Of a DNA stretch of 64,000 nucleotides, positions 6,330-53,114 are shown in pieces. The notes under the pieces are model-generated. The model was not told the DNA's origin, did no database searches, and saw nothing but the letters and a program-made list of their open reading frames with translations. Numbering within the stretch: position 1 is the first letter of the stretch; every line of letters begins with the position of its first letter. Source of the DNA: an uncultured Bacillales bacterium (GTDB lineage Bacteria; Bacillota_I; Bacilli_A; RF39; UBA660); NCBI GenBank assembly GCA_946412015.1, contig CAMKGA010000004.1:3858-67857 (forward strand), given 5' to 3'. A program made the position numbers and the translations under genes.

Positions 6330-8293
6330 GAAAAAAGAGTGTTAAAAGAAGTATTGTTTCTTGGGTTGCTTTAATAATTATATTTTTAGGAGTTATATAC
6401 TTATTTAATGTATTTAACAGAACTATAAATAAATTATCTTATAGTGAACTTATGAAAGCAATGGATAAAAATAAGATTACAGAATTAAATATTACGCCTA
6501 ATGGTAGTGCTGGAATATATGAACTTACTGGAAAAATGAAAAATTATAAAGAAAATGAATCATTTCAAGCATCAGCGCCATTAGCAGATGAAACTATTAA
6601 AGAAATTTATGATGGAAGAAAAGAATATGATTTTGATGTTAGTACATCATCTGATCCATCATCAAGTATATTATTATCATTACTTATAAATGTTTTACCT
6701 ATAGTTTTACTTGTAGGTATTGGTTTTTACTTTATTACAAGACAAATGGGTGCAGCTAATAAGTCTATGGATTTTGGTAAAAGCAAGGCAAGACTTACAT
6801 CGGATAAAGATAAAGTAACATTTAAAGAGGTAGCTGGACTTGAAGAGGAAAAAGAAGAAGTAGCTGAATTAATCGATTTTTTGAAACAACCAAAAAGATT
6901 CCAAAGTATGGGTGCAAGAATTCCTAAAGGAGTACTATTAGTTGGTCCTCCTGGTACTGGTAAAACATTACTTGCAAAAGCAGTTGCTGGAGAAGCTAAT
7001 GTTCCATTTTATTACATAAGCGGTTCAGATTTTGTTGAGCTTTTTGTAGGTGTAGGTGCATCACGTGTTCGTGATATGTTTAAACAAGCAAAACAAAATG
7101 CTCCATGTTTAATATTTATAGATGAAATTGATGCAGTAGGAAGACAAAGAGGTGCTGGTTTAGGCGGAGGACATGATGAACGTGAACAAACCTTAAATCA
7201 ATTACTTACTGAAATGGATGGATTTGGAGCAAATGAGGGAATAATTATTATTGCTGCTACAAATAGACCAGATGTACTTGATCCTGCACTATTAAGACCA
7301 GGTAGATTTGATAGACAAATTACTGTTAACTTACCAGATATTAAGGGTCGTGAAGAAATACTTGAAGTGCACGCAAGAGGTAAAAAGTTTGCTCGTAATG
7401 TAAAACTTTCTAATATTGCAAAAAGAACAGTAGGATTTAGTGGAGCGGATTTAGAGAATTTATTAAACGAAGCTGCACTACTTGCTGTAAGACGTGGTAA
7501 AGATAAAATAACTATGTCTGAAATTGATGAAGGACACGATAGAGTTATTATGGGACCTGCTAAAAAGAGTAAGCAATATACTGAGCATGAAAAAGAAGTT
7601 GTTGCATACCACGAAGCAGGACATGCTGTTGTTGGCATTAAACTAGAAGGTGCTAACGAAGTACAAAAAGTAACAATTATTCCAAGAGGTGCAGCTGGTG
7701 GTTATAACCTAATGTTACCTAAGGAAGAAACTTTCTTATCTACTAAAAAAGAGTTGCTTGAGACAATCAGTGGCTTACTTGGTGGACGTGTTGCTGAAGA
7801 AATACAATTTAATGAGGTTACAACTGGTGCACATAATGACTTTGAAAAAGCTACAAAGATAGCTCGTGCAATGGTTACAGAATATGGTATGAGTGAACTT
7901 GGACCTGTTCAATTTGAGCATCAAGAATCAAGTGTGTTCTTAGGAAGAGATTACAATAAAACACGTAACTTTTCTTCACAAGTAGCATTTGAAATAGATC
8001 AAGAACAAAGAAAAATAATTAATGAATGTTACGATGTAACAAAGAAAATTATAAATGAAAACAAAGATTTACTTGATTTAATTGCCAAGACATTACTTGA
8101 GTATGAAACAATTACTAAAGAACAAATTGAATATCTTGTAGAACATGGTCATATGCCAGATGAAGACGAAAAAAATGATAACAATTTAAATGATAAAACA
8201 TTAGAAGAATTAAAAGAAATAGCAAAAGAAAATGGACTTAAAAATTATAGTAAATTAAATAAAGATGAATTAATTGATAAACTAAGTGAATAG
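6326..8293 (+). CDS. ftsH: ATP-dependent zinc metalloprotease FtsH
   Basis: TM segments, AAA Walker A GPPGTGKT, second region of homology, and the HEAGH zinc-protease motif. Confidence 0.95.
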
Positions 8294-15837: not shown

Positions 15838-15926
15838 GCCTGAGTGGCGAAATTGGTAGACGCACAGGACTTAAAATCCTGCGGGAGTCAAATCCCGTGC
15901 CGGTTCAAGTCCGGCCTTAGGCACCA
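15838..15926 (+). tRNA. tRNA-Leu (anticodon TAA)
   Basis: Cloverleaf with long variable arm, anticodon loop cttaaaa, acceptor gcctgag/cttaggc, 3' CCA encoded. Confidence 0.85.
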
Positions 15927-15933
15927 TTATATT

Positions 15934-16024
15934 GGAGAAATACCCAAGTCTGGTTGAAGGGACTGGTCTTGAAAACCAGCAGGTCGGAAACGGCGCGGGG
16001 GTTCGAATCCCTCTTTCTCCGCCA
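15934..16024 (+). tRNA. tRNA-Ser (anticodon TGA)
   Basis: Long variable arm, anticodon loop cttgaaa, T-loop gttcgaatc, CCA end. Confidence 0.85.
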
Positions 16025-16039
16025 CTAATATTTTAATAT

Positions 16040-16116
<77 letters not shown>

Positions 16117-16121
16117 ATAAT

Positions 16122-16197
16122 GGTCCCGTGGTGTAGCGGTTATCACGTCTGCCTGTCACGCAGAAGATCGCGAGTTCGATTCTCGTCGGGACCGCCA
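16122..16197 (+). tRNA. tRNA-Asp (anticodon GTC)
   Basis: tgcctgtcacgcag anticodon arm is identical to Firmicute tRNA-Asp; CCA end. Confidence 0.8.
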
Positions 16198-16207
16198 TTA
16201 TTTTTTT

Positions 16208-16283
16208 GGCTCTATAGCTCAGTCGGTAGAGCACAGGACTGAAAATCCTGGTGTCGGTGGTTCAATTCCACCTGGAGCCACCA
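16208..16283 (+). tRNA. tRNA-Phe (anticodon GAA)
   Basis: Anticodon loop ctgaaaa, gctcagtcggtagagc D-arm, CCA end. Confidence 0.85.
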
Positions 16284-16296
16284 TAGAAATAATATA

Positions 16297-16314
16297 GCTG
16301 GCATGCCAGCTTTT
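16297..16314 (+). terminator. intra-array hairpin terminator after tRNA-Phe
   Basis: Perfect palindrome agctggcatgccagct followed by tttt. Confidence 0.45.
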
Positions 16315-16377
16315 AAAAAAGACAAATATTGACTTATTTTAAAAAAAGTGATAACATTAATGATGTCTCGGGGATAC

Positions 16378-16454
16378 GCGCTCGTAGCTCAGCTGGATAG
16401 AGTGTTTGGCTACGAACCAAAAGGTCAGGGGTTCGAATCCCTTCGAGCGCACCA
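16378..16454 (+). tRNA. tRNA-Arg (anticodon ACG)
   Basis: Acceptor gcgctcg/cgagcgc, anticodon loop ctacgaa, CCA end. Confidence 0.85.
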
Positions 16455-16460
16455 TATTAT

Positions 16461-16537
16461 CGGGAAATGGCTCAACTTGGTAGAGCACTTGGTTTGGGAC
16501 CAAGGGGTTGCAGGTTCAAATCCTGTTTTCCCGACCA
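16461..16537 (+). tRNA. tRNA-Pro (anticodon TGG)
   Basis: Acceptor cgggaaa/tttcccg, anticodon loop tttggga, CCA end. Its 3' end is the attachment site of the adjacent island. Confidence 0.85.
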
Positions 16538-16572
16538 TTAAGTTTATAAATCCTTGTATTGCAAGGATTTTA
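16521..16572 (+). repeat. attL: 3' end of tRNA-Pro plus downstream hairpin, direct repeat of 22863..22915
   Basis: tcctgttttcccgaccattaagtttataaatccttgtattgcaaggatttt recurs with about 5 mismatches at 22863..22915. It includes the terminator-like hairpin aatccttg-tatt-gcaaggatt. Confidence 0.65.
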
Positions 16573-16612
16573 TAATAATTTGATATTCATAACCCTTATA
16601 AAACACTTAAAA

Positions 16613-17701
16613 TTATTTGTTTTGTTTCATTTGATTCAAGATGTTGACCGCTTTATCTTCATCTTTAGGAATCATATGAGAATAGGTATTGAGTGTCATA
16701 TTGATATCTGAATGTCCTAAACGTTCGGAAATAACTGTTATAGGGACATTCATTGATAAAAGTAAGGATGCATGACTATGTCTGAAGTCGTGTATTCTTA
16801 TTTTTTTGACCTTAGCTATATCACAATACTTATTCTTCTTTCTACCAATTGTTGATGGTGCTAATGGATTTAATCCACCAAATATAAACCAATTATCATT
16901 GAAATCTACACATTGTTGATAATATTTCTTTAAAAGATTAAGTTTATTAATTAATTCATTATCTAGTTTTACTTTTCTGATACTTTGACTAGTTTTAGGT
17001 GTATTAATAATATGTTTGTTATCAACCATTTCTTTAGAGATAGTTTTATTTATGTCTAAATATCCATCTTTAAAATCATTCCAGTTAAGAGCTAGTGCTT
17101 CACCTTGCCTTAATCCAGTATAGTATAGTGTTTCAAATAAGAATTTATATACTAAATCATCAACACATTTAATAAACTTTTGATATTCTTCTATTGTCCA
17201 AAAATCAACATTTTTAACTAACTCTGTTTTTCTTTTGAAATTACCAGTTAGTGTGGCTACATTTGTTTTTAGTCCATAAAACCTAATAGCATAATTTAAG
17301 ATATTAACCATTGCTCCATGCAAACTAGAATTGTATTTATGTTTAAAACCTTTTTTCTCAATTTCAATTTGCCATTTTAAATAAACACTATTAGTTATTT
17401 TATTAAGTTTATAGTTTTCAAAATATGGTAGTATATGATTTTTAAATCTACTCTCAACTGATCTATATGATTGAGTCTTTAATCTTAATTCTTTATAATT
17501 AGCATATTCTTTCCATAAATCATTAAAAGTCATATTAGAGAAATTAAACTTATCTCCCATTTTAAAATCATATTCAGCTTGTTGAGCTTCCTTTTTGGTA
17601 TTAAATCCTTTTCTCTCAAACTGTTTTCTATTTCCATATACATCATCACAATAGGTTCTAAACTTCCATTTCTTTGTTCTCTTATCTTGATATACCGGCA
17701 T
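16613..17701 (-). CDS. int: tyrosine-type site-specific integrase
   Basis: 362 aa; C-terminal catalytic region ...HDFRHSHASLLL...LGHSDINMTLNTYSHM carries the R-H-R-Y box residues; immediately adjacent to the tRNA. Confidence 0.9.
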   Translation of the reverse strand: MPVYQDKRTKKWKFRTYCDDVYGNRKQFERKGFNTKKEAQQAEYDFKMGDKFNFSNMTFNDLWKEYANYKELRLKTQSYRSVESRFKNHILPYFENYKLNKITNSVYLKWQIEIEKKGFKHKYNSSLHGAMVNILNYAIRFYGLKTNVATLTGNFKRKTELVKNVDFWTIEEYQKFIKCVDDLVYKFLFETLYYTGLRQGEALALNWNDFKDGYLDINKTISKEMVDNKHIINTPKTSQSIRKVKLDNELINKLNLLKKYYQQCVDFNDNWFIFGGLNPLAPSTIGRKKNKYCDIAKVKKIRIHDFRHSHASLLLSMNVPITVISERLGHSDINMTLNTYSHMIPKDEDKAVNILNQMKQNK

Positions 17702-17969
17702 ATTTTAAAGTCCTATTATTTAATTTAACTTCTGTATCTGCCATGCTAATAATATAATCTAAATCAAGACCAAGATATTCAATTACTTTTTTAGTAGGTA
17801 CAAGTATTGTTTTACCACTAGGAAGTTGTTTACCATTTTTAACAATTTCATCGGCTATTACTTTTCTGATTTTAATCGCACTGTTTCTTCCGCAATTAGC
17901 AATTAAAGCAATTTCTTTAATACTTGCCCATGGTTTTGATATAATTTTATATAATTCTAAATTGGACAT
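17682..17969 (-). CDS. small excisionase/DNA-binding (Xis-like) protein
   Basis: ~95 aa ORF upstream of and overlapping int, with a strong RBS aaaggaggtgaagat; helix-turn-helix-like segment. Confidence 0.4.
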   Translation of the reverse strand: MSNLELYKIISKPWASIKEIALIANCGRNSAIKIRKVIADEIVKNGKQLPSGKTILVPTKKVIEYLGLDLDYIISMADTEVKLNNRTLKYAGISR

Positions 17970-18108
17970 ATCTTCACCTCCTTTCTTTTGGAAACTTGTT
18001 TCCAAATACACTATACCACTTTAAAAATATTTTGTCAACTAGTTTCCAAAAAATGTTTGGTTTTTTGATAAGATGTGCTATAATGTAGGTGTTGAGGGAT
18101 GTGAATCA

Positions 18109-18609
18109 ATGAAAAAAAAAGAACAAGAATTAGGGGAATTAGTAAAAAAAGCTAGAGAAGAAAAAGGATTATCAGCACGTAAATTAGCTGAGTTATGTAA
18201 TGTGAGTCATACCGAAATTAATAATATTGAAAAAGGTTTAAGAGTAAAACCTGCTGTACTAACACTTAAAGGTTTTGAAAAATATCTTGATTTACCTTTT
18301 GATAAAATAGCTAAGATGGTTGGGTATTCAGATGTAACTATTGACTTTACAGAAAAGAATATAATTGTATCTTATGAAATGTATGATAAATATGTTCAAC
18401 TCAGAAAAAGTGAAGAAGATAATATGTTACATACAATTGATATTAAAAGACATATGGCAATGGATATAAAAAAATCTTTTAATGAAATATATAATTATTT
18501 AAAAAAACAGCCTGATGTTGATAAAACATTATTGAAAAATGCCGATGAAATTATTGATATGCTAAATATAATTGAATTAAAATATGAACCTATTATTAAA
18601 GAAAAATAA
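18109..18609 (+). CDS. XRE-family HTH transcriptional regulator (island repressor candidate)
   Basis: N-terminal ELVKKAREEKGLSARKLAELCNVSHTEINNIEKG is a classic XRE/Cro-C1 HTH; divergent from int/xis. Confidence 0.75.
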   Translation: MKKKEQELGELVKKAREEKGLSARKLAELCNVSHTEINNIEKGLRVKPAVLTLKGFEKYLDLPFDKIAKMVGYSDVTIDFTEKNIIVSYEMYDKYVQLRKSEEDNMLHTIDIKRHMAMDIKKSFNEIYNYLKKQPDVDKTLLKNADEIIDMLNIIELKYEPIIKEK

Positions 18610-18993
18610 TCGTTATAATAATTAAATGATTATTTTTTTTGTGGGCACTTTTCCCTAAATTATTCAAAAATTACATAAAAAAGCACTGTATTTTTTTAAT
18701 GAGCATAAGATGTTCGCCACCCATTTTCGAGTTCCCACTTATAAATCAAAGGAAAAACTGGGTGGCATTTCTATTTTTGCATTTGCAAAAATGCCGACAT
18801 TTTTAAGGAAAAGTGTCCACTCATTATCAAAAACACCATATATATCAACGAATTTAATGCCTACTAATTTAGTGACAAGTACCGGCAATAGTTAAAATGG
18901 TGTTAAAAAAGTGCTTCCTATAATTTTTTTGAATTGATATAAATATGTTGACAATGATAGTTATTTTTTTATATAATAAATTACCAAGAAAGA

Positions 18994-20883
18994 ATGATTT
19001 GGATGAAAAAATTATTAGAATTAAATGAATTATTAAAGAATTATTTAGATATTGACTTTATATACTGTAATAATGAAATTGCAAAAAAAATAAACAATAG
19101 GATAAAAAAACAATTTACTGTAAGCATGAATTTAGAAGATTTAACAAATAAAGTTTATAAACAAAAAGTAAATTTTGAACCTATTAAAAAAAATACTAGT
19201 GATAGTACGCAAGCTGTATCTGCAAATATTAAAGAATTATTTAAAGAAAAAATTTCCAATCCTGATTTAGTATTGTCTTTAGAAAATTTGGGGTATTCAT
19301 ATGAAACAATAAGTTATTATATTGAGACAGAAGAAGAAAAAATGGAATTAGGAATATATAATGAACCTGTCATCAAATTATCTAATATGATAAGCAAAGC
19401 TCATTTTTTAACTCTTTTAGAGAATATGACAAAAAAAGAAATTGATTTTTCAAAATTAGAATATTTAACTTGGGAAGAAGTTGCACCAGCTTTAAATAGA
19501 GAGGGATATGCTAGCACTTGTAAATGTCATAATCCAAATATTTTTAAGAATATTCAATCAATAGATGGAACAATTTTATGTAAGTATTTAGATTTTACTA
19601 ACTATCAGGGCTATAAATCTGACGATTTTTTTCCAAAAAATATTTATGTTACGATTAATCCTTTAGAATACTTTTATGAAAAATTAAGTCTTTCGGAGAA
19701 ATTAATTTTATTTAATGAATCTTGTACAAATGATATTAAACAATCTATCCCTGAACTAATTGATGAAAATCAAATAATAGAACAGATACTATTAATAATA
19801 AAAGATGAAATTGTAAAAAAAGTGTCTAAATATATAGATTTGATAGACAATAAATATATTAAAGGTAGTGAAAATGGAGTCACTAAATTTGATTTAGATA
19901 TTAATAAATCTCTTGATTTTCATTATATTAATCACTTATCTGAAATATATAAATTAGATGTACCTGAATTCACAATAGAAAGTTTGAAGATATTTAAAAA
20001 TAATATATTGGAGATTGAAAATAATAATTTAAAACATTTTATCAAAAAGCGAGAATTAATTGAAACTGAAAAATTTAAAATTGAAATAAAAAACAAAAAA
20101 AATCAGCTTTGTTTTAAAAAAAATAAATCAGCATTTTTAGAAAAAATAATAGAATTTGAAAGATTATTTGAAAATGGAGAAATTTGTGATCCTGATTGGT
20201 ATTTGGAAGATACAACATATAGATCAATAGAAGTTGAGCACTTAACAACATATATAGATAACATAATATATTGTCTAAAAGCTTTTCTTAATGATGATAC
20301 AGAAACGCTGAAAGAAAATCAATTTAATCTTGAATTTGTTAGTGATAATCTAGATTATATTGAAAGAATGTGTAACGAATATATGAGTTATGACCCCCAA
20401 AAGTTTTATGTTGGGAACATTGACAATTTTTATGAATATGGCAAATGGGATAAGTTGCCTTATCAAGAAATAAAATTAATTATTAAATATATTAAAAGCG
20501 AAATGCCTTTTCTTAATGATTATAAAAATGGTCTGTATTCTAATGATACAACTAAAACTCTAGATGAACAAGAAGATAATTGTAATACAAATATTTACAA
20601 TATTGAACGAAAGATCAATTATGACATAGAACAAAATATAAGATTTATTTGTGATGAAATAGAAAAGAATTCTAATATTTATGATGCTTTAACAAATATA
20701 ATTGGTTTACTAGATACTATTAATAAGCCTAATATATTTAATGAAACTATAATTGAACAATTATATGAATTATTGAAAGTGTATGGAATGTTAAGTAATA
20801 GAAAAATTTCTGTTGAATGCGGTATTAATAAGGGACAAAAAGAATCAATACAAAAAGTCTTGATGATAAAAGATAATAAATAA
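18994..20883 (+). CDS. hypothetical 629-aa island cargo protein, no recognisable domain
   Basis: Long ORF with its own TTGACA-N18-TATAAT promoter (18949..18978), located just upstream of Abi_2 inside the island. Confidence 0.3.
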   Translation: MIWMKKLLELNELLKNYLDIDFIYCNNEIAKKINNRIKKQFTVSMNLEDLTNKVYKQKVNFEPIKKNTSDSTQAVSANIKELFKEKISNPDLVLSLENLGYSYETISYYIETEEEKMELGIYNEPVIKLSNMISKAHFLTLLENMTKKEIDFSKLEYLTWEEVAPALNREGYASTCKCHNPNIFKNIQSIDGTILCKYLDFTNYQGYKSDDFFPKNIYVTINPLEYFYEKLSLSEKLILFNESCTNDIKQSIPELIDENQIIEQILLIIKDEIVKKVSKYIDLIDNKYIKGSENGVTKFDLDINKSLDFHYINHLSEIYKLDVPEFTIESLKIFKNNILEIENNNLKHFIKKRELIETEKFKIEIKNKKNQLCFKKNKSAFLEKIIEFERLFENGEICDPDWYLEDTTYRSIEVEHLTTYIDNIIYCLKAFLNDDTETLKENQFNLEFVSDNLDYIERMCNEYMSYDPQKFYVGNIDNFYEYGKWDKLPYQEIKLIIKYIKSEMPFLNDYKNGLYSNDTTKTLDEQEDNCNTNIYNIERKINYDIEQNIRFICDEIEKNSNIYDALTNIIGLLDTINKPNIFNETIIEQLYELLKVYGMLSNRKISVECGINKGQKESIQKVLMIKDNK

Positions 20884-20946
20884 AATCTATAATTTATGGA
20901 GACTAGATTTATTGTATCATTTCTTAAAAATTTTTTGAAAAATGAT

Positions 20947-20974
20947 TTGACATTTGGTCAAAATAGTGTATAAT
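20947..20974 (+). promoter_or_regulatory. sigma-A-like promoter of Abi_2 gene
   Basis: TTGACA at 20947-52, 16-nt spacer, TATAAT at 20969-74. Confidence 0.45.
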
Positions 20975-20981
20975 TATATTT

Positions 20982-21020
20982 AATTGGTACTCAGGAAACT
21001 TTCGAAGCCCTGAGTCAATT
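20982..21020 (+). repeat. 39-bp element with internal 6-7 bp hairpin, upstream copy flanking Abi_2
   Basis: aattggtactcaggaaactttcgaagccctgagtcaatt; near-identical copy at 21936..21974. Confidence 0.6.
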
Positions 21021-21040
21021 TTATATATGGGGGCATAAAA

Positions 21041-21907
21041 ATGAAGGAATATAAAAGCAATGAAGAATTATTAGAATATTTAATATCTAAAGGTGTTAGT
21101 GTTAAAAATAAGAAAGTAGCTTTAGATAAAATAGAAAGATATACGTATTATTGTATTGTAAACACTTATAAAGAAGTATTTAAAGAAGATAATAAGTATA
21201 TTGATGATGTTACATTTGAAGAAATATATGCCCTATATGATTTTGATAAGAGTTTAAAGAATATATTTTTAAAATATATATTGGAAATAGAACAAGTTGT
21301 TAAAGCTCTTATAGCTAATACTGTATCAGAGAAATATGGCATTAAAGATTATTTAACATATAATTGTTTCAATCAAAAAATAAATCAAGATGTTATAGAT
21401 GAAATGATATTAAAAATAGATGATGAAATAAGTAAAAACTATGGTAAACATGCTGCAATAACACATTATAAAGATACATATGGTTTTATCCCGCCTTTTG
21501 TATTAGTTAAAATAATGACAATAGGACAGATAAGTAGATATTATGGAATATTAAAACAAGAAGATAGACAAAAGGTTAGTAAATATTTTAAAATATCTGA
21601 TAAATTACTAAAACAAATACTTCTAAATATTACTTTAGTTCGTAATTTCTGTGCTCACAATAATAGATTATATACATTTCATAGTAAATTCTTTATTAGT
21701 TTTAAATCAATAGATACATCATATAATAGTGCTAATAAAACAACTAATCTTTATATGATTATGAAATGTATGGAATTGTTATTAGATAAAAAAAGGAAGA
21801 AACAATTTATAAATCAAATTAATAAAGAAATAAATAAATTAGATAAAAAGTTAAATGTTATAGATATAAGAATTATTTTAAAGATTATGGGTTTCCCATG
21901 TGAATAA
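21041..21907 (+). CDS. Abi_2 family abortive-infection protein (AbiD/AbiF-like)
   Basis: 288 aa; the N-terminal region matches the Abi_2 family pattern (...EELLEYLISKGVSV...YCIVNTYKEVF...); second paralog at 36545..37468. Confidence 0.7.
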   Translation: MKEYKSNEELLEYLISKGVSVKNKKVALDKIERYTYYCIVNTYKEVFKEDNKYIDDVTFEEIYALYDFDKSLKNIFLKYILEIEQVVKALIANTVSEKYGIKDYLTYNCFNQKINQDVIDEMILKIDDEISKNYGKHAAITHYKDTYGFIPPFVLVKIMTIGQISRYYGILKQEDRQKVSKYFKISDKLLKQILLNITLVRNFCAHNNRLYTFHSKFFISFKSIDTSYNSANKTTNLYMIMKCMELLLDKKRKKQFINQINKEINKLDKKLNVIDIRIILKIMGFPCE

Positions 21908-21935
21908 TTATTTATAATTTGAATATAATAATAGT

Positions 21936-21974
21936 AATTGGTATTTAGGAAACTTTTGAAGCCCTAAGTCAATT
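21936..21974 (+). repeat. 39-bp element, downstream copy flanking Abi_2
   Basis: aattggtatttaggaaacttttgaagccctaagtcaatt; 35/39 identical to 20982..21020 with a compensatory pair change in the stem (ctcagg/cctgag to tttagg/cctaag). Confidence 0.6.
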
Positions 21975-22057
21975 ATTCCTTAATTTTCTAATATGAAAAT
22001 TAAGGTTTTTTTAGAATTTAAAAAGAAGAAACGAATTCTTCTTATAATAAGCATATG

Positions 22058-22723
22058 CTAATATTCTAAATCAATATCTTGATTAATTAATTCTAAATTA
22101 TTGTAAATAGAATGTTTAAAATAACTATATTGATTTTCGATTACCTTACCATATTCATCCAATTTATTATTTAATTTATAATGTCTAATAATATAATTAA
22201 TTACTGTTATTATTTGTGTATAATTATATTCTTTTAATAACTCAGTAAATATATTATCATAATTTGTTAAATTAATATCAGTATCTTTTATAAAGCCTTT
22301 TCTAACTAATTCTAATGTTAAACTATGGTGAATAGTTTTATCTATTTTATCTTTGTTATTATTGCTTTGTATATTAGTATTTAGTAGTGATTTGTTATCG
22401 GTACACCCTTTATCCGTGAACCCTTTAGGGTATTGTGGTGTTTCATAAATATCATATTGATAATTGATTCTACCTTTTTCATCATGTGTTTTTTCTCTTA
22501 TTAAATAACAATTATCTTCTAATTCTTTTAATGTTGATTGTATAGCTTTCTTTCCTTCTTTGCACATTCCAACTAATCCATTAACAGAATATATCCAATC
22601 ATCAGGTAAACTTAACATCATTGATAGTAATCCTTTAGTCTTTAATGATAATTTTTTATCTCTTAAATGATAGTTAGACATCACTGTATAGTTCTTTGTT
22701 TTATTAATTCTAAATACTGCCAT
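22058..22723 (-). CDS. replication-initiator-like HTH protein (RepA_N / DnaD-like N-terminal domain)
   Basis: N-terminus MSNYHLRDKKLSLKTKGLLSMMLSLPDDW...LKELEDNCYL resembles Firmicute plasmid/PICI replication-initiator N-terminal domains. Confidence 0.4.
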   Translation of the reverse strand: MAVFRINKTKNYTVMSNYHLRDKKLSLKTKGLLSMMLSLPDDWIYSVNGLVGMCKEGKKAIQSTLKELEDNCYLIREKTHDEKGRINYQYDIYETPQYPKGFTDKGCTDNKSLLNTNIQSNNNKDKIDKTIHHSLTLELVRKGFIKDTDINLTNYDNIFTELLKEYNYTQIITVINYIIRHYKLNNKLDEYGKVIENQYSYFKHSIYNNLELINQDIDLEY

Positions 22724-22862
22724 AAATTACTCCTCTCCAGCCCTTATCTAGCCCCTTAAAAATTCTTTCTTTAAGCGTTTTAAGCAGAAATGAGTAGTAA
22801 TGAAACGTAAAAAACCTACTATTTTCTGTAGGTTATGTAATATCAAATTATTTTATATTTTC

Positions 22863-22915
22863 TCCTGTTTTCCCGACCATTTAGTTTATAAACCTTGTAT
22901 AACAAGGTTTTTTCT
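22863..22915 (+). repeat. attR: direct repeat of tRNA-Pro 3' end
   Basis: tcctgttttcccgaccatttagtttataaaccttgtataacaaggtttttt, copy of 16521..16572. Confidence 0.65.
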
Positions 22916-22981
22916 TTACTTTAATGTTTTATAGATTTTCTAATAGCTTTTTTAGAATATATTATTAACTGATTTACATCA

Positions 22982-23005
22982 GTTATTTTTTGTAATATAA
23001 AGGTA
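22982..23005 (+). promoter_or_regulatory. conserved 24-bp motif gtaatataaaggtagttactgata (copy 1), ~125 bp upstream of the pilin gene
   Basis: Second copy at 24405..24428 (22/24 identical). Both follow a hairpin and T-run, and each precedes a + strand gene by ~100-125 bp. Confidence 0.4.
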
Positions 23006-23128
23006 GTTACTGATACTAGAATTATAATAAATAATGTGATAAAATTATTTTGTAAAATAAAACAGTACAGTTTTGTTTTATAATTTCTCTTTTATTCAAA
23101 TTTTTATTTTGAAAGGATGGTAGATTTT

Positions 23129-24175
23129 ATGAATAAGAATAAAAGAAAAGGATTCACATTAATAGAACTAATAGCAGTTCTAGTAATACTAGCAATTCTT
23201 GCATTAATAGTAACACCACTAGTTATGAATATTATAAGAAAAGCTAGAATTTCAGCGGATAAAAGAAGTATTGATGCATACGGAAGAAGTGTTGAGTATG
23301 CAATAGCTACATATTTACTAGATAACGGAAAGTTCCCAACAAGTATAGAAGAGCTAACGATAGAATATACAGGAGATGAAGTAGTATGTTCAACATCTAA
23401 GCTTAATTCTGATTCTTCAGTATATCTAGCTGGATGTACTGTAGCAGGAAGAAGTGTAGATTATACATATGGTAGTGAAGAGTCTATCGTATATGATGTA
23501 TATCAAAAAGGAGATACAGTAACATATAATGGAATGAATTTCCACGTAATAAAAGATAGTGGAACAAGTCAAGATTATGTTACATTATTATTAGATACTC
23601 CGTTGACTGCAACTGAGGTTAATACATATGGAGGAGTAGGAACAGCAAATAACCATGTAAATATGCATGTAACTTCTAATACAAATGCATCATATTACCA
23701 AAAAGCATATGATTATAATAGTGCAGGCTATTTAGCATTCTACTCAAGTGAAACTTGTGGATATGATAGTAATAACAATTGGGTAACTACTGGATGTAAT
23801 AATAATTATGCAGATAGTGATATAAAATATGTAGTAGATGCTTGGGCGTTAGATAAAACAACCTCAAGTGATTTAAAAGAAATAGATGGATATAAAGCAA
23901 GAATGATAACATATGATGAATTAACAGATGAGCTAGGATATGAAAAAGCATCAAGTGGAACAATAATGCCATCAAGTAATGGTGATACACCAAACTGGGT
24001 ATGGAATTCAGGAAATAACGCTGGATATTGGACAATGAGTGGGGTAGCAGATAGCACTGACCGTGCCTGGTATGTTATTGGTGATGGCGGGCTTAACAAC
24101 AACAACGTGCGCTACGGCAACTACAGCTACGGGTCTGTTCGCCCAGTTATAAATCTCTTGAAATCTGCCATCTAG
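23129..24175 (+). CDS. type IV pilin/pseudopilin-like protein with large C-terminal domain
   Basis: N-terminal prepilin signal KRKGFTLIELIAVLVILAILALIV (G/FTLIE methylation motif). The C-terminal ~90 aa share a motif block with two modules of the 1906-aa protein (…YW…G…VRPVI…). Confidence 0.65.
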   Translation: MNKNKRKGFTLIELIAVLVILAILALIVTPLVMNIIRKARISADKRSIDAYGRSVEYAIATYLLDNGKFPTSIEELTIEYTGDEVVCSTSKLNSDSSVYLAGCTVAGRSVDYTYGSEESIVYDVYQKGDTVTYNGMNFHVIKDSGTSQDYVTLLLDTPLTATEVNTYGGVGTANNHVNMHVTSNTNASYYQKAYDYNSAGYLAFYSSETCGYDSNNNWVTTGCNNNYADSDIKYVVDAWALDKTTSSDLKEIDGYKARMITYDELTDELGYEKASSGTIMPSSNGDTPNWVWNSGNNAGYWTMSGVADSTDRAWYVIGDGGLNNNNVRYGNYSYGSVRPVINLLKSAI

Positions 24176-24362
24176 GTTATCAAGAAGGTCTCGTGCTAGG
24201 AATAAACTAGATTTAAACAAGTACAATATTTAGAACAATATGAAATGCAATAATTTGGAAACAAATTATTGTAAAAGGCAGCTTGTCTGCCGTAGCTTCA
24301 CGTCTGCGTAGCGAAAGTGAAGCTTATAAATATATATTTTAATGGATAAAGAGAAATTATGA

Positions 24363-24396
24363 AACCCAGTAATATTTAAATTACTGGGTTTTGTTT
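24363..24396 (+). terminator. rho-independent terminator after pilin gene
   Basis: Hairpin aacccagtaat-atttaa-attactgggtt followed by ttgtttt. Confidence 0.55.
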
Positions 24397-24404
24397 TATA
24401 TTGT

Positions 24405-24428
24405 GTAATATAGAGGTAGTTACTGATA
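24405..24428 (+). promoter_or_regulatory. conserved 24-bp motif gtaatatagaggtagttactgata (copy 2)
   Basis: Paired with 22982..23005. Confidence 0.4.
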
Positions 24429-24554
24429 TATATAAGGTATTCCAAAAAAGTATACCCTATATAAATTTTTATTATTAAAATTATTATTAATAATTATTTA
24501 CAATTTTTATCTTGCTGTGATATACTATTGTTGTATAGGATAGTGAGGTATAGT

Positions 24555-24767
24555 ATGAACAAAAGAATTATTGAAGATGTAAATATTAAATGTGAAAAGT
24601 GTGGTAGAGATATTGGCTTTAAGGTATATTATGAGTCAAGTAATGAAACAGGAGAGAATAAATATAAAAAGTCTAATTTAGATGATGTAGAGGTATGCTC
24701 TTGTAGTGGTGCATATAAGCAGTATGTTAGTAAATATAATGATCTGCCTGCATTAATTACAAGATAG
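24555..24767 (+). CDS. small hypothetical protein with CxxC...CxC cysteines (zinc-ribbon-like)
   Basis: 70-aa ORF, RBS gtgagg; CEKCGR ... CSCSG. Confidence 0.3.
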   Translation: MNKRIIEDVNIKCEKCGRDIGFKVYYESSNETGENKYKKSNLDDVEVCSCSGAYKQYVSKYNDLPALITR

Positions 24768-47393: not shown

Positions 47394-50300
47394 ATGAAAT
47401 TAAAGAAGCATAAAAAAATTTTGATTCTTTTTGCTTTTGTTGTTGCTTTCTATGCCATTGTTAGTGGGACTTTTTCTATTTATAGAGAAAAAAAAGGGGA
47501 TAAGATTGATTTAAGTATTTTGGATGCTTCTGGAATGGTTACAGTAAATTTTAAGGCTAATGGTGGAGTAATTGATTCTGAAGATGAGACAAAAACTGTT
47601 CAATCAGGTACGACTATTGGACAATTACCAGAAGCAACAAGAGATGATTATAATTTTGATGGATGGTATACTGAACCAACGGGTGGAGAAAAAATTGATG
47701 AGAATACTGTGGTAACGGGAACAACTGTTGATTATTATGCACATTGGATTAAAATAGTATGTAAAAAGGCCGTAACTGGTACATTACACAGTGAAACTTG
47801 TGCTCAAGGTGGAGCGTGTTCAGGATCTGGCGGTGGTTATCACGCTAATGATACTATCTATTATGGAACAATTCCAAGTTCTATTAGCCCTATTGTCGGA
47901 GATGCTTATGATTGTGATGTAAACGATGATGATACATGGGATCCTCAGACTGAAAGATTTTATTATGTTAGACATTATGGGACAACAGATGAATTTGAAA
48001 ATTCTGTATTGGTTCATTATACAAGTTTTGATGATTTAGGGCAAATGGATTCATCTCCTTCAAGAACCAATTATTTATACGGAGATGCTAGTGATTATTT
48101 ACCTACATCTGCAACTTGGGATAATCCAGCTCTTATTGAAATGAATGGTAATATTACTAGATTTATTGCACGAGAGGATTTAGCTGCAGCTTGTGGTTCT
48201 GAATCAGGAGGAAATAAATTTGAAAATTGCCGCTTCTATTTAGAAAATAGTAGGTATCAATCTAGTAGTTTAGGTAGAGCAGGTATATGGTTAGCTGCCG
48301 AAGGAAATACACATTATAGAATTCATACAGAACAACTATCTGTTTCAGTTGCTGATACAGATAGTAAAAATACAGTTAGACCAACTATTCAAATTCCGTC
48401 TAATAGAATAGAAGATTTTAACAAGAAGAAAAAATATACTATAAATCTTGATTCTCAGGATGGAATGCCAAGCGAGTATTCTTTTGAGAAATGGGAAGGT
48501 GAAAGATTAGACACACTTCCAATCCCAACAAAATTTGGTTATATTTTTTCTGGATGGTATACAGACAATGAAGATTATACAACTGAAATTACACAAAATA
48601 CTATTGTAACAGGTAATATTAATGGATATGCTAAATGGGTACCTAAACAAGTGCCATTAGATTATGTATTCTATATACCAGGAGAGTGTTCTTTTACATC
48701 AACAGGTATTGTAAATGGTGAAAATGGAGATTGTATTAGTACAATTAATCCAACAGGATCAAATATTGATTATACAGGAAGTTCTTTATCTTCAAAAAAA
48801 TACATAGATACTCAAGTAGGTTTATATAATTCAATAAATCACGATAAAGATTTTGAAGTGGGATTTACTATCGTAAGTTATAATTCAGCTGATAATATAA
48901 ATAGAGCAACATTAGTTCATTCAAAAGCAGAAATAGTAAATAGATATCCAGGATTTACGTTTAGAAAAAAAGATGCTACAAATAATTTTTTACTACAGTC
49001 TAGAGAAACACAAAGTAGTAATGCTGAGTATATAATTGCATCCTCATCTGTACAAAATGTAAAAATATATAGAATAAGTAATTCTATTTACTATAGTATA
49101 AATGATGGTGAAAAAACTAAATTAAATGATTTAAATCAATACAATCCAGTTTTTGATTTAACAACTTGGTTTGGTGGTGCTCCAAAAGATGAATCAGCAC
49201 TTGTTGCGGATAGATTATTTATAGGTACATTAAGTAATATGTATATCAAACTATCTCCAACAGCAAAAGTAACATTTGATCCTAATTATACTGGAGAACC
49301 ATCATTTGAACAAGATGCTAATGTTGGTAAAAAAATTGGTGATTTACCAACAATTACTAGACCGGGATATGCATTTATTGGTTGGTATACCGATCCAGTT
49401 AATGGTTCTAAGATTAACTCAAATACTATAATTGATGGAGATATTAGATTTTATGCTCATTGGACTGATGGTGCTACAGTAACACTTCATGCAAATGGTG
49501 GAAGTGTAAGTCCAAATACAATAACAGTTTATCATGGACATGAAGTAGGAAATCTTCCGACACCAGAGAGAACAGGATATACTTTTGATGGTTGGTATCA
49601 AGATGTGAATCTTACAATTCCTGCTACATCAGAAACAGTAATAAATCAAAATACAGATTTCTACGCAAAATGGATTGAAAATGTTACTATTACATTTGAT
49701 GCTGATGGTGGAGAAGTAAGTCCAACTAGTAAAACACAAGCTTCTGGACTTGCAATTGGAGATTTGCCAATACCATCAAAAATAGGTTATGACTTTGTAG
49801 GTTGGTATACCGATAATACATATACAACAGAAGTAACTTCTTCGACAGTGTTTAATACAACAACAACAATTATTGCAAAATGGGAAGAATTAGATGATAT
49901 AACTGTTAATTTTGATGCAGATGGAGGAAGTGTAAGTCCAACTAGTGTTACATTCCCACCTGGATCAGCAATAGGTGAATTACCAATTCCGGAAAAAACA
50001 GGATATAATTTTGTAGGTTGGTATACGGATAATACATATACAACAGAAGTAACATCTTCTACAACATTTAATACAACAACAACAATTATTGCAAGGTGGG
50101 TAGATGAGCAATATGTAGCTTGTGTAGGATTGAATTGTTATCTAACATTAGATGAAGCTATAGCTGCGGTACCAACTACTAAAGTAAAAACTAAAGTTAA
50201 AATCTTAAAAGATATTACGACTACAGATACTATAAATATAACAAGTAGCAAATGGGTTGAATTAGATATTGGAAATAATACTATTAGTGCTACTAGCGGA

Positions 50301-53114
50301 ACGTTCTCTTTGTTTACAAATACAGGTAAATTAGATATTATTAATGGTAAATTATATAGTTCAGGTGGATATATTATTGAAAATAAATCTACTGCAACTG
50401 TAAATATTTATGATGGAGAGCTAACTTATAATAAATCAAGTGATGGTGAGAAAAAAGTAATTGAAATTAAAGGTGGAACAGTTAATATTTACGGTGGAAC
50501 ACTTTCTTGTAACTCTAAAGCTGCAGTAATTAATGTTAATGCAGGAGCGTCATTAAATGTATATGGTGGAAAAATTAAGGGTACTAATACATTTAAAGGA
50601 CAAGCAGTTTATAACAATGGTGGAATAGTAACAATAAGTGGAACAGCTTATTTAGAGAATAACTCTCAGACTGGTACTGCAAATGGTAGAGCAGCTCTTC
50701 ATAATAATGCTGGAACAATTAATATACTTGGTGGAACAATTATAAGTAATAATAATTCAGCTGTAAAAAATAGTGATACAATGACAATTGGTACTAATGA
50801 TGATCCAATAGATAATACAAACCCAGTTATGCAAGGCTATAATTATGGTTTAGAAATAGCTAGTGGGAAAACAGTAACAGTTTACGATGGTATTTTCAAA
50901 GGTAATGTAAATACTAATAATAAAGCAATTAATGATGAATCAGGCGTAATTGTTAATAATGCAACAATTGTTCATACCAATGAAACAATAGATAATATTC
51001 AATATGATGTAGCTTATCTAGAAGATATTTCAGTTAATATTACAGTAAACTTTAATAAAAATGGTGGGGATACGGTTGAGTATAATTCAAAAACATTAAC
51101 TGAAATAGGTCCTATTGGAAACCTGCCTACTGCAACTAAAGCTAATTCAGAATTCTTAGGTTGGTTTACTGCAGGAGTTGGTGGAGAAAGAGTACTTTCA
51201 ACAACAGAAGTTGATGATGATGTTACTTATTTCGCACATTATACAAACACAAAAACAGTATGTAGACCAGCGACTGTTCTACATTCATCTGGATCAACAG
51301 AATTTGGACAAATTCCAAGTAGTCCATCATTAAGTGCTGGAGACGCTTTTGATTGTGATGTTAATGGTGACGGCACATATGATGCAACAAATGAAAGATT
51401 TTATTATTTAAATAAAACAAGTGATGGCAAAGCAGTATTAATATTCTATAATAATACATCACAAGTTAATAATAATGTATCTCCAGTTTGTAGTGCAACT
51501 GCTGTTAGTTATGCTCCTACATTTACAGAAGGTCCAAATACAGCTATTTCTGAGCTTCCTACGATAGCTCAGTGGCCAAATGTAAGTTTATATACAGAGC
51601 CAAGAACTATCACAGATGAGTCTGGAAATACTGTTTTAAGTAATTATGTATATAGTGGTTCAGCTGCAAGATTTGCAACTCTTGATGAGATTAAAGCAGC
51701 AACTAATTCTAATTTAAATGAAACTGCAAATGAGTTAGAAGATTACACATTCTTACTTGAAAATACAATTTCATATGGAAGCGATTGTAGATCAAATTAT
51801 TGGTTAGAAACAGTTAATTCAAATGGTGGAGCTGAAAGAATTAATGGTGCTGTTACTGCTAAGAGTCTTGGCCATGCTTCTGGTAATTCAGGAGTAAGAC
51901 CTGTAATCGAAGTCCCATTTGATTCAATTGAAGGAGCAATAAATATTGTTGAATTTGATACAATTCCAGAAGCAATGAGAACATATTTTAACAATGTTAA
52001 TTCATGGAATACTGGACAGGATGATACAAATTATAGTAGTTTTAATGATGCTATGACAGCAAATCTTAATAATTATGATTGTGCATATTATAAAAATGAT
52101 AATGTTACAACACAATATGGTAGTGTCTATTGTGATCAGCCAAATAAGTATAATACAGGTATTACAGGTAATATTAATGTATATGAATATAACGAGTTAA
52201 CAGGATTAAGATCAAATAATACAGTAAACTATGTATTTAATGATAATGGTAAGCTATATAATTTTATTCCTGGTAAAACATATTATTGGGAATCAGCTAG
52301 TGATAATACTAAAAAAGGTTTTGTAAGACCTACTGGTGAAAGACGACTTATTACTATTCCTGGTGTTAATAGACAGACGCGTAATGTAAGAGATTTAGGT
52401 GGCCTTCCTGTTGATACAAATGGTGATGGTGTTATTGATGGAAAACTTAAATATCAAAAGCTATATCGTGGTGAAAAAATTTGGGGATTAAATAATGATG
52501 GTACAACAAGAGCACAATTTGAAAAGTTAGGTATTTATAATGAATATGACCTTCGAACTCCAGGTTCAGATATTGTTATATCAGAAGAAGATAAATTGGC
52601 AAATTATAATCAAAACGAAATAGTTCATTATAAGATTGATCATACTGAATTTGGATCTCCTGCAACAGAAACACGTTTCAATGGTAAAAGTTATTATCAG
52701 TTATCTAGAGATGCTGCAATAGATGTAATGAAAAAAGTAGTAGCTGGTAATGATGATTATTCTATTTATTTACATTGTCGTATAGGAGCTGATAGAACAG
52801 GTACTCTTGCTTATTTATTAGAAGGTGTTTTAGGAGTGCCAACGGAATATAGATATCAAGATTATGAATTAACAACTTTCTTCGGATTAAGAGAAAGAAC
52901 AAGGTATTATTATATGAAAGATTCTACTAATGATATGTATAAATTCATATATTTAAAAAAAGCAATTCGTCATGCAACTTTAGGAAATGATGAGATTACT
53001 GGAGAAGAAAATGTAATTGATTGGTTCTTATTAGAAGGTAATTCCACAAGTGAATGTAGTGATATAACTGCACTAATAAATCAATTTAGAGCTAAGATGA
53101 TTGACTATAATTAA
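47394..53114 (+). CDS. giant (1906 aa) surface/secreted protein: SipW-type signal, Listeria-Bacteroides (Flg_new) repeats, parallel beta-helix, duplicated VRPVI modules, C-terminal CX5R tyrosine-phosphatase-like domain
   Basis: N-terminal FAFVVAFYAIVSGTFSIY signal. Seven G[YF].F.GW[YF]T..........W repeats, Gly-rich GG..IYGG beta-helix repeats, and a C-terminal HCRIGADRTG (CX5R P-loop). Two ~220-aa modules end in ..YW..G....VRP[VT]I..P. Confidence 0.7.
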   Translation: MKLKKHKKILILFAFVVAFYAIVSGTFSIYREKKGDKIDLSILDASGMVTVNFKANGGVIDSEDETKTVQSGTTIGQLPEATRDDYNFDGWYTEPTGGEKIDENTVVTGTTVDYYAHWIKIVCKKAVTGTLHSETCAQGGACSGSGGGYHANDTIYYGTIPSSISPIVGDAYDCDVNDDDTWDPQTERFYYVRHYGTTDEFENSVLVHYTSFDDLGQMDSSPSRTNYLYGDASDYLPTSATWDNPALIEMNGNITRFIAREDLAAACGSESGGNKFENCRFYLENSRYQSSSLGRAGIWLAAEGNTHYRIHTEQLSVSVADTDSKNTVRPTIQIPSNRIEDFNKKKKYTINLDSQDGMPSEYSFEKWEGERLDTLPIPTKFGYIFSGWYTDNEDYTTEITQNTIVTGNINGYAKWVPKQVPLDYVFYIPGECSFTSTGIVNGENGDCISTINPTGSNIDYTGSSLSSKKYIDTQVGLYNSINHDKDFEVGFTIVSYNSADNINRATLVHSKAEIVNRYPGFTFRKKDATNNFLLQSRETQSSNAEYIIASSSVQNVKIYRISNSIYYSINDGEKTKLNDLNQYNPVFDLTTWFGGAPKDESALVADRLFIGTLSNMYIKLSPTAKVTFDPNYTGEPSFEQDANVGKKIGDLPTITRPGYAFIGWYTDPVNGSKINSNTIIDGDIRFYAHWTDGATVTLHANGGSVSPNTITVYHGHEVGNLPTPERTGYTFDGWYQDVNLTIPATSETVINQNTDFYAKWIENVTITFDADGGEVSPTSKTQASGLAIGDLPIPSKIGYDFVGWYTDNTYTTEVTSSTVFNTTTTIIAKWEELDDITVNFDADGGSVSPTSVTFPPGSAIGELPIPEKTGYNFVGWYTDNTYTTEVTSSTTFNTTTTIIARWVDEQYVACVGLNCYLTLDEAIAAVPTTKVKTKVKILKDITTTDTINITSSKWVELDIGNNTISATSGTFSLFTNTGKLDIINGKLYSSGGYIIENKSTATVNIYDGELTYNKSSDGEKKVIEIKGGTVNIYGGTLSCNSKAAVINVNAGASLNVYGGKIKGTNTFKGQAVYNNGGIVTISGTAYLENNSQTGTANGRAALHNNAGTINILGGTIISNNNSAVKNSDTMTIGTNDDPIDNTNPVMQGYNYGLEIASGKTVTVYDGIFKGNVNTNNKAINDESGVIVNNATIVHTNETIDNIQYDVAYLEDISVNITVNFNKNGGDTVEYNSKTLTEIGPIGNLPTATKANSEFLGWFTAGVGGERVLSTTEVDDDVTYFAHYTNTKTVCRPATVLHSSGSTEFGQIPSSPSLSAGDAFDCDVNGDGTYDATNERFYYLNKTSDGKAVLIFYNNTSQVNNNVSPVCSATAVSYAPTFTEGPNTAISELPTIAQWPNVSLYTEPRTITDESGNTVLSNYVYSGSAARFATLDEIKAATNSNLNETANELEDYTFLLENTISYGSDCRSNYWLETVNSNGGAERINGAVTAKSLGHASGNSGVRPVIEVPFDSIEGAINIVEFDTIPEAMRTYFNNVNSWNTGQDDTNYSSFNDAMTANLNNYDCAYYKNDNVTTQYGSVYCDQPNKYNTGITGNINVYEYNELTGLRSNNTVNYVFNDNGKLYNFIPGKTYYWESASDNTKKGFVRPTGERRLITIPGVNRQTRNVRDLGGLPVDTNGDGVIDGKLKYQKLYRGEKIWGLNNDGTTRAQFEKLGIYNEYDLRTPGSDIVISEEDKLANYNQNEIVHYKIDHTEFGSPATETRFNGKSYYQLSRDAAIDVMKKVVAGNDDYSIYLHCRIGADRTGTLAYLLEGVLGVPTEYRYQDYELTTFFGLRERTRYYYMKDSTNDMYKFIYLKKAIRHATLGNDEITGEENVIDWFLLEGNSTSECSDITALINQFRAKMIDYN
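49684..50103 (+). repeat. tandem near-identical duplication of a 216-bp (72-codon) Flg_new repeat unit inside the giant gene
   Basis: 49800..49878 and 50016..50094 are ~92% identical at DNA level (ggttggtataccgataatacatatacaacagaagtaac...); the flanking parts of the units are also similar. Confidence 0.6.

Follow-up and report, generated by a model that had tools for sequence, protein, structure and literature searches.

We analysed the 3' end of a type IV pilin-like gene in a 64-kb stretch of DNA from an uncultured Bacillales bacterium (assembly GCA_946412015.1, contig CAMKGA010000004.1, positions 3,858 to 67,857 of the forward strand). This stretch is called the window in the following and served as the working sequence; it was compared with sister loci, designated by L-numbers, which come from ENA/Logan assemblies and were reached via protein look-ups. 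The last part of the gene is much richer in GC than its surroundings, and the comparison indicates with high confidence that it is the variable region (VR) of a target gene of a diversity-generating retroelement (DGR), a system in which a gene end is rewritten from a template repeat (TR). The gene and the two features that define its end are:

23117 to 24175, plus strand: open reading frame of 352 aa, type IV pilin-like, the predicted DGR target gene.
24063 to 24146, plus strand: predicted VR, 84 nt, 54.8% GC, aligning to the TR of L005 and L044-L047.
24131 to 24146, plus strand: GC-rich 3' end of the TR/VR homology, GGGTCTGTTCGCCCAG, at the position of an initiation of mutagenic homing (IMH) site and overlapping the invariant ...VRPVI coding motif.

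The protein starts with the N-terminal methylation motif KG/FTLIELIAVLVILAILALIV (KG/FTLIE..., the slash marking cleavage), which is recognized by the Pfam family N_methyl (E = 4e-9). It thus has the cleavage and methylation motif G/F-x-x-x-E followed by a hydrophobic helix that distinguishes the N-termini of type IV pilins and pseudopilins.

The overall GC content of the window is 26%. The pilin-like gene has 32% GC as far as 24039 and then 53% between 24040 and 24150, and GC at third codon positions, which is 0.14 in the gene body, climbs to 0.62 across codons 24062-24148. Only two places in the 64 kb reach at least 50% GC over 110 nt, namely a cluster of seven tRNA genes (15838-16537) and the segment 24008-24170. 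The GC-rich tail in an AT-rich genome that an earlier, sequence-only reading of this DNA had pointed out is therefore real, at twice the GC content of the window.

This tail is also where the gene varies. Homologues that are 92-95% identical differ almost exclusively in the segment AW(Y/F)V(I/L)G..GGL....V......GS that it encodes, and the VR is different in each of thirteen close homologues that are otherwise near-identical. Among six contigs, the VR has diverged by 16-26% at the DNA level and the remainder of the gene by 1.6-5.4%.

We found the corresponding template in five independent sister contigs (L005 and L044-L047), which carry an identical TR of 79 nt. It is non-coding, lies at L005:2558-2636 and reads GCCTGGTATGTTATTGGTAATAATGGCGGGCTT(AAC)4GTG(AAC)5GGGTCTGTTCGCCCAG. 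The VR of the window reads, in codons, GGT GAT GGC GGG CTT (AAC)4 GTG CGC TAC GGC AAC TAC AGC TAC GGG TCT GTT CGC CCA G, and its end lies at the 3' end of the target reading frame, 29 nt before the stop codon. The identity of TR and VR runs to CGCCCAG, beyond which the two are unrelated, and the coding motif ...VRPVI found at this boundary is conserved in all VR-bearing paralogues. In a codon-aware comparison with five VRs, changes fall on 53 of 121 adenine sites of the TR and on just 1 of 268 sites with another base. Within L005, TR and VR differ at TR adenines only, and the VR of the window (24065-24146) differs from the TR of the sister contigs at 7 adenine sites and at none of 53 non-adenine sites (0/53). 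By inspection, the VRs of L048 and L050 match the same scaffold.

In these relatives, the TR belongs to a DGR cassette. In L005, where the pilin-like protein and that of the window share 92.6% identity, the cassette lies directly upstream of the gene and its products match the Pfam families MutS_I (E = 2.4e-7), bAvd (1.4e-9) and RVT_1 (6.4e-13). The order in the relatives is a MutS-like gene (MSL), avd, the reverse transcriptase (RT) gene and the 79-nt TR, with the pilin-like gene about 250 bp downstream, and L044-L047, which were found through the RT, have the same cassette. The MSL accessory gene, always found alongside avd, is a described DGR component (PMC5758913).

The cassettes show two further particularities. 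Downstream of the TR comes a stretch of about 170 nt that is conserved in two different DGRs of the family (L005:2637-2815 and L020:371-545). It ends in ...CTGCAATTTTTTT, shows apparent compensatory changes (CCTTA...TAAGG versus CCTAG...CTAGG) and probably represents a structured 3' part of the DGR RNA. In L044, the RT is followed by a gene for a 430-aa HTH_38 protein (6439-7731, minus strand), with the TR further on, at 7989, where in L005 just ~77 nt separate RT and TR; judging from its HTH_38 domain, this gene looks like a transposase-type insertion within the cassette.

Similar genes form large families. We collected paralogue loci (L006-L043) from four metagenome-assembled genomes (MAGs) of uncultured Bacilli/Erysipelotrichaceae (CAKPFG01, CADCIZ01, CACZAH01 and CAMJTE01), in which most paralogues have a GC-rich tail (GC fraction 0.42-0.57, the 600 nt before it having 0.28-0.35). 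In most of them this VR-like tail follows a scaffold that they share, and no RT lies within 6 kb; within the fetched flanks, an RT was found in L005 and L020 only. The uncultured gut Bacilli MAG CAKPFG01 alone has 18 matching loci, with at least 15 candidate targets, and eight of its paralogues, with VRs of the same length, follow one scaffold, GTG TGG nnT GTG nnC nnC nAT GGC nnC GTG nnC nnC nnC nnT GTG nAT nnC nnC GnA GGT nCC GTG CGC CC, which would be the expected product of one TR serving many remote targets. Eight paralogues with AT-rich tails (L012, L023, L024, L026, L032, L034, L036 and L037) look non-diversified.

The window itself holds a giant open reading frame (47394-53114, 1906 aa). 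Its product has Flg_new (Listeria-Bacteroides) repeats, seven in number, a Y_phosphatase3 domain at the C-terminus and two domains whose ends, ...VRPTIQIP and ...VRPVIEVP, resemble the end of the variable domain of the pilin-like protein. As the sequence-only reading had remarked, this ...VRP(V/T)I motif is encoded there in AT-rich codons (34% GC at 48255-48398 and 39% at 51774-51917), and by composition these two domains are not DGR targets.

Following established DGR biology, the RT, together with Avd and perhaps also MSL, would copy the RNA of the TR into cDNA and misincorporate bases opposite adenines. This cDNA would take the place of the homologous gene end as far as the GC-rich boundary. 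NNC codons in the C-terminal, ligand-binding domain would thereby be randomised, and the pilin-like surface protein would acquire a varied binding surface. The same template accounts for the composition of the tail. The TR has 25 adenines in 79 nt, nearly all of them within AAC/AAT codons, and the tail is GC-rich because adenine is present in the template only where variation is wanted, the scaffold being made of G, C and T; A-to-N changes then raise the GC content further, from 47% in the TR to 55% in the VR of the window. The compositional anomaly is thus accounted for without foreign DNA, and a DGR VR may be recognizable in an AT-rich genome as a GC-rich island of NNC codons at a gene's 3' end, even without a nearby retroelement.

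The sequence-only reading had instead seen in the tail a recent import, by gene conversion from a foreign donor of higher GC content. The sharp compositional break (53% against 26-32% GC) would fit such an import, as would the mobile element integrated at tRNA-Pro that adjoins the gene. However, the GC-rich stretch is conserved in the genes of the relatives and recurs in most paralogues of several MAGs, and the donor is an endogenous, non-coding TR of the same lineage, present in five sister contigs, from which the VRs differ by adenine-specific changes. The tRNA-Pro element is, moreover, unrelated to the tail, since L044 has both the element and the cassette while L005 and L045-L049 are without the element. 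Horizontal transfer or gene conversion from a higher-GC organism therefore appears extremely improbable. The related suggestion of a recombination site was right in spirit, as the VR of a DGR is overwritten from a template via cDNA retrohoming, and wrong as to a conversion from foreign DNA. As for a structured RNA overlapping the tail, also suggested, the variation falls at positions 1 and 2 of NNC codons, which is not the pattern of RNA structure; a scan of 23900-24600 against Rfam (E up to 10) gave chance-level matches only (best E = 1.2), and a known RNA family was consequently rejected.

Shuffling among pilin paralogues without any retroelement, in the manner of Neisseria pilE/pilS, is another conceivable source of variation. 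The large families (at least 15 copies in one MAG) would provide the material, and mosaic variation does also occur in patches of the gene body, for example at residues 186-200 and 215-232. We nevertheless regard it as very unlikely for the VR, where changes concentrate at TR adenines (53/121 against 1/268 other sites), the C at the third codon position stays fixed, and a non-coding (AAC)n template adjoins an RT and Avd in the relatives.

Some observations weigh against the assignment of the tail to a DGR. In the 64-kb window we could not find RT, Avd or MSL by tblastn with the L005 proteins (best E for RT = 4.8). Relative to the only TR found, the VR of the window has one AAT codon fewer and two NNC codons more. 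Its first (AAC)4 tract (24096-24107) is equal to that of the TR, with all 8 adenines unmutated. Finally, AlphaFold2 (AF2) models compared with the PDB by Foldseek gave no significant match to a C-type lectin, C-type lectins and TvpA, a Treponema DGR target, appearing only at E ~0.75-5 (0.75 for TvpA). Concerning length, the VRs of L001, L003, L004, L005, L048 and L050 measure 76, 79 or 82 nt against an invariant TR, NNC codons being gained or lost in-frame inside the AAC tracts, and the VR of L020 (1510-1590, compared with the TR at 297-370) has four more NNC codons than the adjacent TR. Multiple-of-3 indels beside AAC repeats are known from ~7% of DGRs, where they are ascribed to template slippage (Wu et al. 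2018, PMC5758913), and the length differences seen here are consistent with such slippage. Concerning the first tract, several of the same 8 adenine sites are changed in the other four VRs compared, and the second tract of the window is heavily changed and two codons longer than that of the TR; selection or non-mutagenic conversion may have kept the first one unmutated.

The place of the cassette in the window is taken by a short segment:

22992 to 23030, no strand assigned: 39-bp filler at the exact site of the relatives' 2.4-kb DGR cassette, delimited by synteny breakpoints and containing GTAATATAAAGGTAGTTACTGATACTAGAATTATAATAA.

The breakpoints are exact, L005 318-446 corresponding to window 22863-22991 and L005 from 2852 onward to window 23031 onward, and they are the same in L044-L047. 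The filler is common to four contigs from other samples (L001, L048, L049 and L050) and thus belongs to a real haplotype and not to a misassembly. No second copy of the tail was found on either strand of the 64 kb by BLASTN (word size 7) or by an exhaustive ungapped scan, and the exact TR pattern GGCGGGCTTAACAACAACAACGTGAACAAC had zero matches in the genome_contigs, metagenome_contigs and viral_contigs collections. As there is no cassette in the window, its VR is locally orphaned, and would be either the frozen product of earlier rounds of diversification or a target served in trans by a DGR elsewhere in the genome.

For the first of these, a relic whose cassette was lost or never resided at this allele and whose rewriting has ended, we would put the chance at slightly less than even. 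The absence of RT, Avd and TR from the 64 kb is in line with it, and so are the filler shared with other contigs and the first (AAC)4 tract, which still equals the TR. On the other hand, the cassette-less haplotypes (the window, L001, L048/L049 and L050) have the filler in common and carry four different VRs, which hints at diversification in trans, and the scarcity of an RT near the VR-bearing paralogues of the MAGs argues that trans-diversification is normal in this lineage. The cassette-less contigs are, however, also 1.6-3.1% diverged outside the VR, so that their different VRs are no proof of diversification after the loss of the cassette and may also stem from old polymorphism and recombination.

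The filler also takes part in a repeat, GTAATATA[A/G]AGGTAGTTACTGATA, which flanks the pilin-like gene at 22992-23016 and 24405-24429. The downstream copy is present in the window only, and not in L001, L004 or L005, and the exact 15-mer core of the repeat occurs twice where 0.27 occurrences are expected. The pair could be a recombination footprint.

The region between the gene and its transcription end contains a series of hairpins:

24246 to 24273, plus strand: hairpin A, 12 bp in total, with a covarying 10-bp core (24248-24257/24262-24271) and a GAAA loop (24258-24261).
24277 to 24291, plus strand: hairpin B (ggcag-cttgt-ctgcc), present in RNA and DNA folds.
24294 to 24324, plus strand: hairpin C (agcttcac-15 nt-gtgaagct), present in RNA and DNA folds.
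24359 to 24400, plus strand: intrinsic terminator of the pilin-like gene, a 15-bp stem followed by a T run, found by terminator scan (24359-24394) and folding.

Hairpins B and C are the two GC-rich hairpins that the sequence-only reading had proposed, and both are present in the minimum-energy and the centroid folds; it had overlooked the larger hairpin A just upstream and the terminator. Folding z-scores are -4.95 for the RNA of 24176-24400 and -6.3 for the DNA of 24240-24330, and 0 of 200 shuffled sequences fold as well.

The hairpins also recur in relatives. The region 3' of VR-bearing genes is conserved as a module across paralogues and MAGs, and its first hairpin, A, covaries: in an RNAalifold analysis with pair counts, 99.3% of cells are paired and 5 of the 10 pairs show compensatory changes, with variants such as CAATAATTTG/CAAATTATTG, CAAATCCTTG/CAAGGATTTG, CAATGGTTTG/CAAACTATTG and CAAAGACTTA/TAAGGCTTTG. 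None of 500 shuffles reaches this covariation score, and slid controls collapse. The position of hairpin B is occupied in relatives by GGCAAAT/ATTTGCC or other stems. Hairpin C is identical in L001, L003, L004 and L005, and distant relatives have different small C-GAA-G hairpins at this place, which makes the form of hairpin C lineage-specific.

When a covariance model of the module was scanned over 530 kb of fetched loci plus the window, it gave 24 strong matches, all on the gene strand, with 23 of them beginning 90-106 nt past the VRPVI-coding motif. None lies behind a TR or behind a paralogue with an AT-rich tail, and the module accompanies 19 of 27 GC-rich-tail paralogues against 0 of 8 with AT-rich tails (Fisher p = 5e-4, with no correction for relatedness). 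The module and the last ~15 codons before it (...VRPVITIKKSAI and the stop) are also retained behind truncated or stop-ridden gene remnants (L021:6289-6394 and L030:6950-7055), and the gene 3' end and the module seem to survive or move as a unit. Sequences resembling the end of an insertion sequence (IS), beginning with CTTATAACCGGACAGTTTTAGAAAA... and followed by a long hairpin CGTGAATAT...ATATTCACG, are inserted soon after the stop codon of several genes: in L048 at 7085-7200, 40 nt past the stop, with related sequence within ~50 nt in L016 and L023.

In published DGR targets, a hairpin or cruciform with a GC-rich stem of 7-10 bp and a GRNA loop is needed 4-34 bp after the VR (PMC3240598). 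By analogy, it is plausible that the present module, which lies ~100 nt past the end of the VR, acts as a target-side DNA hairpin or cruciform that aids cDNA integration. Alternatively, the hairpins would be RNA structures of the 3' untranslated region (3'UTR), associated with the terminator and inherited with the duplicated genes, with no part in DGR targeting, and we give this possibility nearly, though not quite, half of our belief. They do lie between the stop codon and the intrinsic terminator and are thus transcribed. Of the properties of hairpin A, the GAAA loop agrees with the published requirement, whereas the distance (the core begins 101 nt past the VR end) and the AT-rich stem fall outside the range of PMC3240598. 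The full module is missing from eight of the VR-bearing paralogues whose tails are GC-rich, the place of the module in L048/L049 is cut off from the VR by an IS-like insertion, and hairpin B is disrupted in the close relative L003 (ctgcc to cttta), all of which counts against a targeting role. A structure inherited merely with the 3'UTR is, in turn, difficult to reconcile with the 90-106 nt spacing, which is kept in very divergent lineages even where the intervening sequence looks unalignable by eye, with the absence of the module after the TR and after non-diversified paralogues, and with its retention behind the gene remnants of L021 and L030. The loops, GAAA or C-GAA-G, also point away from it, as both are typical of stable DNA hairpins. 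Taken overall, a plain role in the 3'UTR, for instance in mRNA stability, and a role in target recognition seem to us about equally likely.

A larger proposal would join these elements: a few DGR cassettes may serve in trans at least 15 dispersed pilin-like adhesin genes, including those at cassette-less loci, which would be recognized via the conserved multi-hairpin module ~100 nt past the VR, as a novel type of target-side signal. We consider this proposal in its entirety rather unlikely, while far from negligible. If true, it would amount to a retroelement-driven system of antigenic or adhesive pilin variation in Gram-positive bacteria. The fixed distance makes the module a candidate for the recognition of remote targets and, to our knowledge, the integration of cDNA at the target is still an open step of the DGR mechanism.

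The pilin-like protein belongs to a family with 2118 database matches. A profile of 71 homologues compared with the PDB matches only the N-termini of pilins and pseudopilins (MshA, GspG and PilE), and among these homologues Pfam recognizes DUF6273 in 39, Lcl_C (formerly DUF1566) in 12 and, weakly, CBM_5_12 in 38. The protein of the window itself stays below the Pfam thresholds for these three families, and its exact look-up returned no record. Its probable layout is an N-methylated-type pilin start, a segment with weak likeness to CBM5/12 and, at the C-terminus, a domain resembling DUF6273/Lcl_C that carries the VR. The AF2 models are confident: the full-length one has a long helix (residues 15-70) and a mean predicted local distance difference test score of 90, and the one of residues 160-352 scores 88.6. 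For the C-terminal domain, Foldseek ranks highest the IgA peptidase 9qa6 of Thomasclavelia ramosa, an Erysipelotrichaceae species (E = 1.2e-3 with the full-length model and 0.08 with the domain model; 53 aligned columns, 24% identity), and a related domain may thus already be part of a solved structure. The 90% cluster of P0001 has 87 members, of which 5 of the 15 listed are unrelated membrane proteins, so that its size is not to be read as 87 VR variants. Among the open reading frames flanking the pilin-like gene, we noticed no prepilin peptidase and no pilus or secretion assembly genes, a statement limited to these flanking frames and not based on a systematic annotation of the window.

The mobile element next to the gene measures ~6.3 kb (16572-22862) and is integrated at the 3' end of tRNA-Pro, with att repeats at 16522-16571 and 22863-22912. 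Its open reading frames include a tyrosine-integrase-like one, recognized by eye (16613-17701, minus strand), one of 629 aa with no Pfam match, an Abi_2 and an HTH_36. The element is polymorphic, being present in L044 and L050 and absent from L005 and L045-L049. The idea that it displaced the cassette was rejected, as L044 has both and L048 neither.

A VR of a DGR is a known kind of system, while the literature that could be searched contains no description of the target family as such. Its members combine a type IV pilin-like N-terminus with a DUF6273/Lcl_C-like variable domain, and AT-rich gut Bacilli hold them in large sets of paralogues. A GspG-type pilin domain figures among the rare VR-bearing domains of one survey (PMC11661182), and what could be searched of the literature combining DGRs with type IV pili, as well as the large 2021 survey, consulted by terms, yielded nothing specific. 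In uncultured gut Bacilli/Erysipelotrichaceae, the present data point to type IV pilin-like surface proteins as a large family whose predicted ligand-binding tips are hypermutated by DGRs in many paralogues per genome, the presence of the cassette varying between strains.

The prototype of these systems, the DGR of Bordetella phage BPP-1 (mtd-avd-TR-brt), shares with the present one the TR/VR pair, the adenine-specific substitutions, a VR at the extreme 3' end of the gene of a ligand-binding protein, a homology that ends GC-rich, the presence of Avd (here in the relatives) and a hairpin with a GRNA loop (here GAAA) downstream of the VR (PMC3240598). It differs in gene order, which in the relatives is MSL-avd-RT-TR-target, and in its target, a cellular pilin-like protein here instead of a phage tail fibre. 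The hairpin, too, is unlike that of BPP-1 in standing 101 nt off rather than 4-34 bp and in having an AT-rich stem, and the window is without a cassette. Similar features are known from the chromosomal DGRs of Legionella LdtA and Treponema denticola TvpA, in which MSL stands alongside avd, targets may be far from the RT, and in-frame indels between TR and VR occur at AAC tracts (PMC5758913). The same survey reports a maximum of seven non-adjacent targets, against at least 15 candidates in one MAG here; and unlike LdtA and TvpA, the present targets have a prepilin N-terminus and their host is an uncultured lineage of gut Bacilli/Erysipelotrichaceae.

The DGRs of Bacteroides type V pilus tip adhesins offer a further parallel, in that gut bacteria are reported to diversify adhesive pilus components (bioRxiv 10.1101/2024.11.15.621889). 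Those are type V pili of Bacteroidota, whereas the proteins described here have a type IV pilin or pseudopilin N-terminus and belong to Bacillota, the two families being unrelated. Finally, Neisseria pilE/pilS resembles the present system in the hypervariable C-terminal region of the pilin and in the multiple related gene copies. Pilin variation in Neisseria proceeds by RecA-dependent gene conversion from silent cassettes, whereas the VRs described here bear the adenine-only signature of a reverse-transcribed template.

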